Source: an archaeon (GTDB taxonomy: Archaea; Iainarchaeota; Iainarchaeia; Iainarchaeales; Iainarchaeaceae). Taken from it: a stretch of 21,323 nucleotides of DNA. The translations under genes were made by a program, and so were the position numbers. Shown here in pieces: positions 11,262 through 18,015 of this stretch (positions within the stretch are counted from its first letter, which is position 1; the number at the start of each line of letters is the position of its first letter). Location: the NCBI GenBank assembly GCA_038046625.1, contig JBBSVV010000041.1:1-21323 (forward strand). The letters are read 5' to 3'. The notes beneath the pieces were generated by a model that saw nothing but the letters and a program-made list of their open reading frames with translations, was not told the origin of the DNA and made no database searches.

Positions 11262-11375
11262 TGGGGTCGGCGGGATTTGAACCCGCGACACACCGGTCTT
11301 CAGCCGATTGCTCTCCTAAGCCTGCAGCAAGTAGCCTTTGCAGCCCTTAACCGCATCAGGCTGAGCTACGACCCC
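11262..11375 (-). tRNA. tRNA-Phe(GAA) with a 40-nt intron in the D-loop (11317-11356)
   Basis: GGGGTCG/CGACCCC acceptor stem, GCTC/GAGC D-stem, ATCGG-CTGAAGA-CCGGT anticodon arm, GCGGG-TTCAAAT-CCCGC T-arm. Removing the intron restores D-loop AGCCTGGGA. Confidence 0.93.
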
Positions 11376-11837: not shown

Positions 11838-11870
11838 AAAAAAAGCCAGTTTACAAACAAAATAAAAAGG

Positions 11871-11969
11871 CGAGCCCGGAGGGATTTGAACCCTCGATCC
11901 CCTGGTTGCTCCAATTAACTTGTATTAATTCTAAGAGCCAGATGCTTTACCAAGCTAAGCTACGGGCCC
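11871..11969 (-). tRNA. tRNA-Lys(CUU) with a 25-nt canonical 37/38 intron (11907-11931)
   Basis: GGGCCCG/CGGGCTC acceptor; TCTGG-CTCTTA[intron]A-CCAGG; BHB helix CTCT/GGAG with TAG and CAA bulges; intron stem AATTAAT/GTTAATT. Confidence 0.95.
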
Positions 11970-17164: not shown

Positions 17165-17354
17165 AAACACAAATTCTTGGACAAGTTTCAAAACAACCGC
17201 AACCATTAAACTTAACCAAACTAAAGCAAATTACAACTTATAAAAGAAAAATAAAGCCAAATAAGACTTGAATTTAGTAAAACGACCCTAAAAATGCCAA
17301 TTAGTGAGCGGTACCTTTATTTAAAGCTTTTGCAAGAGCATTATTAGATTATAG

Positions 17355-17556
17355 AGCGGGGTAGGGCAGCCAGGAGTGCCCGTCGGGCTCATAGGAGATA
17401 TACTATGGCAAACATACAAAACCTCACGAACTCAGATTCAACTGTTCAAAGGAGAAGAAGGTACCGCCAGCTGGAAACTGAAGAAAACTTGGCAAATATA
17501 AGATAGTGTATTACTGAGATACCCGAAGGTCGAAGGTTCAAATCCTTCCCCCGCTA
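17355..17556 (+). tRNA. Initiator tRNA-Met(CAU) with a 127-nt 37/38 intron (17394-17520)
   Basis: AGCGGGG/CCCCGCT acceptor (A1-U72); anticodon stem TCGGG/CCCGA with three G-C pairs; CTCATA[intron]A; BHB helix CTCA/TGAG with TAG and ATA bulges; T-arm GAAGG-TTCAAAT-CCTTC. Confidence 0.95.
17405..17506 (+). CDS. Candidate 33-aa peptide inside the tRNA-iMet intron: MANIQNLTNSDSTVQRRRRYRQLETEENLANIR
   Basis: AGGAG SD 7 nt before ATG; open frame to TAG fills the intron loop. No homology or expression evidence. Confidence 0.45.
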   Translation: MANIQNLTNSDSTVQRRRRYRQLETEENLANIR

Positions 17557-18015
17557 TATTTCTCTTTTTAACCCGAACTAAACTACATAACAACAAGCCG
17601 AATTGCCATGAAATAACCCTACTCAAAAATGTGACCAGTTGGTAAAAGGCCGTGAAAAACCACTCTAAATTCAGGAAAAGTAGCCACCCAACGCCAAAAA
17701 GCGTTTACAAAAAATGTGGCTCTTTGAATCGACTGTAAAAAGCACGCACAATTCTACAAATTTGCCAAAAAACCATTAAAACACACCCACAAATAAATCG
17801 GGTTGCTAACTAATCAAAAAATAGCACTTAAAATAGACTCACTTTTAGTTGCAAATTCACAAAATTATACAAAAAATAGCCTGATTTAAGGTTGAATTCG
17901 TCAAAAGACTGAAAAATAGCAGTAATTACTATAAATATAACACATTACAACGATGAAGAAGCTTAATTACTCTCAAGAAGGTAATTATTTAAAGAGGAAG
18001 TTCGTAATCACTACA

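Follow-up and report, generated by a model that had tools for sequence, protein, structure and literature searches.

The window analysed here, 21,323 nt of archaeal DNA (contig JBBSVV010000041.1 of assembly GCA_038046625.1, Iainarchaeaceae; 0.99 Mb, 85% complete, 48% G+C), carries at positions 17355–17556 an initiator tRNA-Met (iMet) gene that is interrupted by a 127-nt bulge-helix-bulge (BHB) intron, within which lies a 33-codon open reading frame (ORF) that is probably the truncated, frame-shifted remnant of a nuclease gene; the gene and all of its features are on the forward strand. ARAGORN, when introns are allowed, reports the gene as tRNA-Met(cat) with i(40,127), but it is called neither by ARAGORN at default settings nor by Rfam at the gathering threshold. 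The 5′ exon (17355–17393, tRNA positions 1–37) ends in CTCATA, with the CAT anticodon at 17390–17392; the intron (17394–17520), delimited by ARAGORN, RNAfold, and a motif check, splits the gene one base past the anticodon, and the 3′ exon (17521–17556, positions 38–73) is assigned from the sequence and ARAGORN. Archaeal initiator tRNAs are defined by an A1:U72 pair and three G:C pairs low in the anticodon stem, and these marks can be read in the exons, which have the CAU anticodon, A1:U72, and GGG/CCC at the bottom of the anticodon stem. In sequence, both exons agree at 100% with the 75-nt iMet gene (L004) of G001, a genome of the same genus in which this gene is uninterrupted, and excision of 17394–17520 yields exactly that 75-nt gene, which corresponds to an insertion at the canonical 37/38 position.

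The exon-intron junctions form a strict hBHBh′ motif, in which all four pairs of the central helix CUCA/UGAG are made between C32 U33 C34 A35 (17388–17391) and 17515–17518, and which has two 3-nt bulges, UA|G and AU|A. The intron-proximal helix h′ consists of 1 bp, one mismatch, and then 10 bp; in the RNAfold prediction this 10-bp stem, which includes two G·U pairs, is formed between 17397–17406, comprising leader sequence and the AU of the ORF start codon, and 17503–17512, so that the A and U of the start codon and the entire TAG stop codon (17504–17506) are buried in it. This agrees with the original prediction, which had described a stem pairing the start region of the ORF with its stop codon. 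The intron recurs with 0 differences in public DNA sequencing data, in a contig of 3154 nt from run X1 and in one of 187 nt from run X5 that spans 17364–17550, but it should be noted that these runs may themselves be the source of the assembly. A look-up among RNA runs returned none that contains the locus. Contig joints that skip exactly 17394–17520 were seen in all four runs, with a shorter side of just 21–30 nt, and were rejected as alleles of this organism; they are uninformative on its own alleles because they derive from exons shared with the intron-less genes of other organisms.

The ORF occupies 17405–17506, from ATG to TAG, and is preceded by a Shine-Dalgarno (SD)-like GGAG (17394–17397) that stands 7 nt ahead of the ATG; the earlier description of an initiator tRNA intron of 127 nt organized as GGAG, ATG, 33 codons, and TAG was thus accurate. 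SD-like motifs are found upstream of 240 of the 888 long ORFs in the genome, compared with 112 of 888 in a control interval. The GGAG of this genome usually begins at −15 to −12, not at −11 as here, and the 3′ end of the 16S rRNA lies outside the assembly.

A scan with the 3′ splice-junction pattern (UGAG, AU, and then the 3′ exon), which matched six loci, identified a relative of the intron in L058, from a metagenome-assembled genome (MAG) of “Candidatus Forterrea sp.” This 285-nt iMet intron, also at 37/38, is filled by a single ORF whose start lies 12 nt inside the intron and whose stop codon is the TGA within the BHB sequence UGAG, and the N terminus of its product matches the window peptide in the pattern NL.NS.S.VQRRRRY.Q.E.EEN. 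The minimum free energy fold of the 360-nt L058 pre-tRNA gave no cloverleaf and was set aside. In a collection of 5.8 billion proteins the L058 ORF has 23 relatives of 81–109 residues (E 1.7e-51 to 6.3e-26, 60–74% identity), which are referred to here as the ∼88-residue family. Their source names are hypothetical, apart from one cluster member named “Holliday junction resolvase,” and one cluster member comes from a Micrarchaeota MAG. In L058 and L060 the intron that contains the gene interrupts a conserved gene at a conserved site. For seven of the 23 relatives, inspection by eye indicates that N-terminal extensions added by gene callers (MPVGLI.., MLAGLI.., ..AWSARRAH..) are the translated 5′ exon of an iMet gene, and the genes for these proteins are therefore also located at the 37/38 site.

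The window ORF belongs with this family through its first 28 codons (17405–17488), as seen in alignment A1 and in profile comparisons. It keeps all nine of the invariant N-terminal residues (Asn9, Val14, Gln15, Arg16, Arg18, Arg19, Tyr20, Gln22, and Glu26), and a family profile from which the window row had been excluded finds the ORF frame over positions 1–31 with 35.9 bits and an E value of 2.9e-13; when the family profile was run against whole genomes, the match in the host genome was again confined to positions 1–31 (E 9.5e-11). Between codons 2–28 and L058 the proportion of synonymous differences (pS) is 0.77, which is saturated, and that of nonsynonymous differences (pN) is 0.29, so that the N-terminal part evolved as protein. 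The retained part matches the family consensus at 17 of 23 positions, as compared with 18–22 of 21–23 in intact members, and three of four nearly invariant N-terminal positions (Met8, Met23, and Met25) are changed in the window copy only. Family positions 32–76, which include Asp48, Glu61, Lys63, and Gln73, have no counterpart in any frame of the window intron. Neither the 33-residue peptide nor the L058 protein on its own had a match in Pfam, and no useful match came from NCBIfam. The single match of the peptide among 1.84 billion representative proteins (P0001, E 3.7e-4) had no BLASTP alignment and was discarded as spurious.

The other end of the ancestral gene is also present, in a different frame from the 33-codon ORF. 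Positions 17482–17517 hold a remnant of the last 11 codons and the stop codon (R K L G K Y K I V Y Y TGA), and this tail fits the family C terminus, K.LV.NY.VV.Y-stop. Frame 1 aligns to profile positions 81–88, and the match of a C-terminal subprofile in this frame, which stops precisely at the TGA within the BHB UGAG, scores 7.6 bits, a score attained by one of 3000 shuffles. Accordingly, the structural elements on the 3′ side of the intron coincide with old coding sequence: the 3′ strand of helix h′ (17503–17512) corresponds to the ancestral codons I-V-Y-(Y), with the out-of-frame TAG inside it, and the first three bases of the 3′ strand of the central helix (17515–17518) are the ancestral TGA of the endonuclease gene. 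The putative deletion junction is the sequence AGAAAA at 17482–17487. The L058 intron has exactly two copies of this hexamer, one at codon 26 and the other at codon 77, at a distance of 151 nt, whereas the window intron has one. The single copy in the window has the place and phase of the first L058 copy and is followed by sequence resembling that downstream of the second. The lengths fit as well, since 285 less 151, less 1 for a shorter leader and 6 for a shorter tail, is 127. As 151 cannot be divided by three, such a deletion shifts the frame, and the old codons ATA GTG are then read out of frame as a-TAG-tg, which accounts for the stop codon in the stem. A similar pairing is possible in L058, between CAAUG, of which the start codon is part, and a CAUUG within the last codons, as judged by eye in this single comparison. 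A two-deletion model, in which a third-frame TWQI (2.3 bits) is the remnant of the GWEI motif, was set aside, as a single deletion fits the lengths exactly.

The ∼88-residue family looks like a group of nucleases of the VRR-NUC/Hjc type of the PD-(D/E)xK superfamily, as judged from sequence profiles and a predicted structure. The nearly invariant residues are Gly37, Trp38, Ser42, Pro43, Thr44, Cys47, Asp48, Glu61, Phe62, Lys63, Lys64, Gln67, and Gln73, and Glu26...Asp48...Glu61-x-Lys63...Gln73 has the PD-(D/E)xK pattern of the VRR-NUC and Hjc nucleases. Among 24 sequences searched, Pfam VRR_NUC was matched by 15 (best E 0.0021) and Hjc by 8, none reaching the curated cut-offs, and among the phage families of PHROG, phrog_93 (“endonuclease”) was matched by 23 (best E 1.3e-7) and phrog_5702 (“Holliday junction resolvase”) by 18. 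In profile comparisons with the PDB, a match to VRR-NUC 4qbo (E 0.0016) aligns D-R-I, E-x-K, and Q, and a match to Hjc (E 0.43) places Glu26 over the first catalytic Glu of that enzyme. The AlphaFold2 (AF2) model of the full-length protein (pLDDT 88), in which residues 13–35 form one long helix, is most similar to the VRR-NUC structures 4qbn and 4qbo (Z 4.5 and 4.4, root mean square deviation ∼2 Å over 46–47 residues), followed by FAN1 and then by tRNA-splicing endonucleases, and among the named clusters of the ESM-Atlas those of phage VRR-NUC/Hjc proteins are nearest. The window ORF, which ends at family position ∼31, has no catalytic Asp, Glu-x-Lys, or Gln. Free-standing relatives of the intron nuclease, with 43–47% identity, are found on three viral contigs; one of them (45% identity; L090:1387-1816, on a 265-kb viral contig) ends 2 nt before a tRNA-Met(CAT) gene, and the other two have no tRNA nearby.

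The distribution of the intron is sporadic. In 215 genomes of the phylum the ∼88-residue family was found only in G139, a genome of the same order in which it is full length (E 1.4e-46) and lies in the same intron as in L058, and, in truncated form, in the host genome of the window; the identity of the G139 intron to that of “Candidatus Forterrea sp.” marks the host as a DPANN-type archaeon. Of the iMet genes parsed from 30 relatives, 21 are intron-less, including that of G001, and nine have introns of 12–412 nt, none of which resembles the window intron. Sporadic presence, intron-less alleles, and a degenerate copy together make up a pattern of the homing type. The family profile matches 118 of the 215 genomes when weak matches to cellular proteins are included; among the matches listed, most of those in the other 116 genomes are weak and pair profile positions 48–85 with a cellular protein of ∼120–170 residues. 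In the host genome this protein (G000:C3:36663-37112, forward strand) has a hydrophobic N-terminal stretch and matches Endonuc_Holl (PF10107, E 5.6e-22); it is present in one copy in most genomes of the phylum and, among cellular proteins, is the one most closely related to the core of the intron nuclease. In another phylum, reached via L059 and L057, the family profile matched 0 of 401 genomes at E ≤ 1e-8. There is no second copy of the intron at the DNA level in its own genome, and against 196 genomes of the order the intron DNA gave just 17–36-nt A-rich matches (best E 5.6e-4 per genome), which were taken as chance, although the same search did not detect G139 either, in spite of the relative at the protein level in that genome. 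A 21-nt 5′-junction pattern had 0 matches in metagenome contigs and 0 in genome contigs. No family homologue of 30–47 residues was found in the 5.8-billion-protein collection, but this is weak evidence, as such ORFs are rarely called by gene callers. Two of the other iMet inserts have features of their own. The 78-nt intron of L056 (Ga0315310_10000041) is arranged in a box C/D-like manner, with GTGATGA close to the 5′ end and CTGA at the 3′ end, and Rfam recognizes only the tRNA in this locus; L021 (G044:C7) has a 40-nt insert that appears to lie within the 5′ strand of the anticodon stem, a non-canonical position, rather than at 37/38.

Taken from the sequence comparisons, the most probable explanation, to which a probability of about 0.8 is assigned, is that the 127-nt intron is the fossil of an intron-borne, VRR-NUC-like homing endonuclease gene that has lost its core. 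The ancestor would have been an ORF-carrying BHB intron of ∼285 nt encoding a PD-(D/E)xK nuclease of ∼88 residues, most likely a homing endonuclease that would cut intron-less initiator tRNA genes and so allow the intron to spread, and this lineage would have gained the intron by homing. A single deletion of ∼151 nt, through slippage between the AGAAAA repeats, may then have removed codons ∼28–76, including the catalytic Asp, Glu-x-Lys, and Gln. With the frame shifted, the old ribosome-binding site, the ATG, and 28 codons would run into the TAG, and the old last codons with their TGA would survive only as the 3′ strand of the closing helix and of the BHB helix. GGAG, spacer, and ATG are thus inherited signals, and the intron presumably persists as a neutral, spliced passenger, in which a 33-residue product, if made, would no longer serve the element. 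The original prediction had named a decayed mobile ORF as a fallback, and it is this suggestion that the N-terminal homology and the C-terminal remnant in another frame support; its preferred notion of a complete mini-gene is not supported, since the ORF corresponds to the N-terminal third of a gene of ∼88 codons whose core is deleted and whose C-terminal codons are out of frame.

Several points weigh against this explanation and bear on its competitors. The assignment of the family as a nuclease is below threshold in each single test and the structural scores are low: the VIA structural search gave no Z of 5 or more, and Foldseek gave nothing at E ≤ 0.001, with 4qbo first at E 0.056. The full-length intron is represented as DNA by one sequence, L058, to which L060 is identical, so that the deletion route depends on a single distant comparison, and the genome, being 85% complete, may contain an intact copy elsewhere. 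Furthermore, the retained N-terminal part has no stop codon or frameshift, has all nine invariant residues, and is barely more divergent than intact members, a pattern that would result equally from a deletion of very recent date and from selection that still acts on the short peptide. Selection of this kind would be expected if the ORF encoded a functional microprotein, an arginine-rich helix of 33 residues (VQRRRRY...) translated from the pre-tRNA or the excised intron, with a role of its own, for example in binding the tRNA gene or RNA or in coupling translation to tRNA maturation. The GGAG with its 7-nt spacer, the ATG, the intact frame, and the long helix that spans residues 13–35 in the full-length model are all in keeping with such a product. 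It is nevertheless unlikely, because its last five residues and stop codon are old codons read out of frame, three of the four nearly invariant N-terminal positions are altered here only, the same-genus genome G001 lacks the intron, and neither the short form nor homologous intron DNA was recovered in the genomes, protein records, and junction searches described above. With the intron absent from the closest relative, and the short form from every other genome searched, the earlier proposal that translation competes with BHB folding and links maturation of the initiator tRNA to initiation finds no support.

A function at the RNA level, as a box C/D guide or other structured RNA in which the ORF is incidental, is still less probable than a microprotein, and only a slight possibility. 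C/D guides occur in archaeal tRNA introns according to a review (PMC4090602), the L056 intron has the sequence GUGAUGA...CUGA, and CUGA is found near the 3′ end of the window intron (17514–17517), but there this sequence belongs to the BHB helix and the old stop codon, and no C box (RUGAUGA) is present in 17394–17520. Rfam searched at E ≤ 10 over 17300–17620 gave noise (best E 1.7, and no snoRNA family better than E 4.4), the interior of the intron is predicted to be mostly unpaired, and the fold of the whole pre-tRNA has a z of −1.43. The idea that the ORF arose by chance in an A-rich intron draws on the very many windows from which it was picked out, and on the finding that the interior stays open in 31% of shuffles when both stem-embedded ends are held fixed. 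However, in 20,000 unconstrained, dinucleotide-preserving shuffles of the intron an ATG-initiated ORF of at least 33 codons on the same strand appeared in 1.1%, and together with an SD-like motif in 0.06%; many conserved residues are kept through synonymous changes, and the homology to an independent protein family, found with the window row left out, shows descent from a real protein-coding gene. A chance origin, which the original prediction had kept open, is therefore excluded for practical purposes.

Further weight is lent to the homing interpretation of the iMet introns by a second ORF family, not related to the first, which occupies the same site, as is expected for a homing hot spot. 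The 37/38 introns of two further iMet genes, of 402 nt in L055:626-1027 and 412 nt in L026:602-1013 (G043:C2), both on the reverse strand, are filled by ORFs of ∼130 codons whose products contain the motif ..GL.LYWCEGDK.. and have 34 relatives in the protein collection. No convincing sequence match to this family was found in Pfam or the PDB (LAGLIDADG_3 in 2 of 33 sequences, best E 0.064; HindIII, E 0.15). The AF2 model (pLDDT 89.6) is similar to WhiA (Z 7.3), an intein endonuclease (Z 7.2), I-DmoI (Z 7.1), and I-Tsp061I (Z 6.1), and an endonuclease-type gene with the LAGLIDADG fold is thus the best match for this family, but the fold was seen in the wide VIA structural search only, and the top Foldseek hits of the model are OmpA-like domains with TM scores of ∼0.4.

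Archaeal LAGLIDADG genes are known from rRNA introns, and the accepted mobile BHB introns with endonuclease genes are, to our knowledge, those of rRNA genes. The rRNA introns that carry LAGLIDADG genes (I-DmoI, I-Tsp061I, and I-Vdi141I) and their ORF-less derivatives resemble the present system in being spliced by proteins, in residing in a highly conserved gene for a stable RNA, in having an ORF that fills the intron, and in their sporadic presence among relatives and degenerate copies. They differ from it in that here the host is a tRNA gene, the ancestral ORF has ∼88 codons and is VRR-NUC/Hjc-like rather than LAGLIDADG, and the core has been lost in the window. Homing endonuclease genes are also described more generally from archaeal BHB introns (PMC6125680). 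Among stand-alone enzymes, VRR-NUC (PF08774; 4qbo and 4qbn), Hjc (PF01870), and Endonuc_Holl (PF10107) appear to share with the full-length relatives the E...D...ExK...Q pattern and a β-β-β-α-β core, but the intron family is distinguished by a conserved N-terminal arginine-rich extension and by its location in tRNA introns; of the features of the family, the window ORF retains just the arginine-rich extension and the first Glu (Glu26).

A closer parallel in location is I-Ssp6803I, whose gene sits in the group I intron in the anticodon loop of a cyanobacterial tRNA-fMet. In both systems a gene for a small PD-(D/E)xK-type nuclease occupies an intron in the anticodon loop of an initiator tRNA, but the intron of I-Ssp6803I is a self-splicing group I ribozyme, whereas that of the window is of the BHB type and too short to accommodate a ribozyme. 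I-Ssp6803I is named as a PD-(D/E)xK homing endonuclease in PMC3943268. No sequence or structural match to it appeared in Foldseek, VIA, or PDB profile searches with the ∼88-residue family, and the resemblance looks like convergence rather than common descent. The C/D guide of the tRNA-Trp intron, which a 2014 review treats as a unique example of a functional unit in an archaeal tRNA intron (PMC4090602), is likewise a functional module nested at the 37/38 position of an archaeal tRNA; unlike it, the window intron has no C box and no Rfam match, and its content is protein-coding by descent. In a term search of the same review the words “homing,” “ORF,” and “open reading frame” have 0 occurrences, and literature searches that covered open-access papers and preprints listed no report of an archaeal tRNA gene whose BHB intron codes for a protein. 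The nuclease genes in initiator tRNA BHB introns apparently constitute a small family that has not been described before.

With respect to other features, an A/T-rich, TATA-box-like element, TTTATTTAAA, was recognized by eye at 17316–17325, about 30 nt upstream of the 5′ end of the iMet gene. ARAGORN finds 34 tRNA genes in the genome, 10 of them with introns, and the other long ones are those of tRNA-Tyr (169 nt), a further gene (121 nt), tRNA-Ser (84 nt), tRNA-Pro (69 nt), and tRNA-Arg (47 nt), on contigs C7, C21, and C23. These introns share CTTTTC/GAAAAG hairpin modules, have no sense-strand ORF, and look like one family of structured inserts, from which the iMet intron differs in kind. Two more tRNA genes lie on the reverse strand of the window. 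At 11263–11373, Rfam matches tRNA model positions 9–63 only and ARAGORN finds nothing; by eye this reads as a tRNA-Phe(GAA) with an insert of ∼40 nt in the region of the D-loop, i.e. a non-canonical intron. At 11869–11969 there is a tRNA with a 25–27-nt intron beside the anticodon, given by ARAGORN as Ala(agc) with the intron at 35 and read by eye as tRNA-Lys(CTT) with a canonical intron.

The way in which archaeal tRNA genes acquire introns has been under debate for a long time, and the present observations suggest that introns of this kind can be selfish mobile elements. A broader proposal, for and against which the arguments are about evenly balanced, is that the BHB introns of DPANN initiator tRNA genes are mobile and are driven by a minimal VRR-NUC-type homing endonuclease of ∼88 residues, or elsewhere by a single-domain LAGLIDADG enzyme, that would recognize the near-palindromic DNA of the anticodon stem-loop, the window intron being a stage in the decay of such an element. 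If this is correct, it would provide a direct route for the gain of archaeal tRNA introns, followed by their shrinkage to short introns without ORFs, and an archaeal counterpart, lacking a ribozyme, of the cyanobacterial tRNA-fMet group I intron with I-Ssp6803I. The intact family members would be candidates for a very small homing endonuclease with a defined and universally conserved target. For annotation, the case indicates that a short ORF in a long tRNA intron can be the fossil of a gene, and that such ORFs should not be annotated as genes. Across small archaea the 37/38 site of the iMet gene is found with an intact nuclease gene of ∼88 codons, with a LAGLIDADG-fold gene, or with a deletion remnant, and these three states give a testable picture in which the intron would be gained by homing, then decay, and finally be lost.

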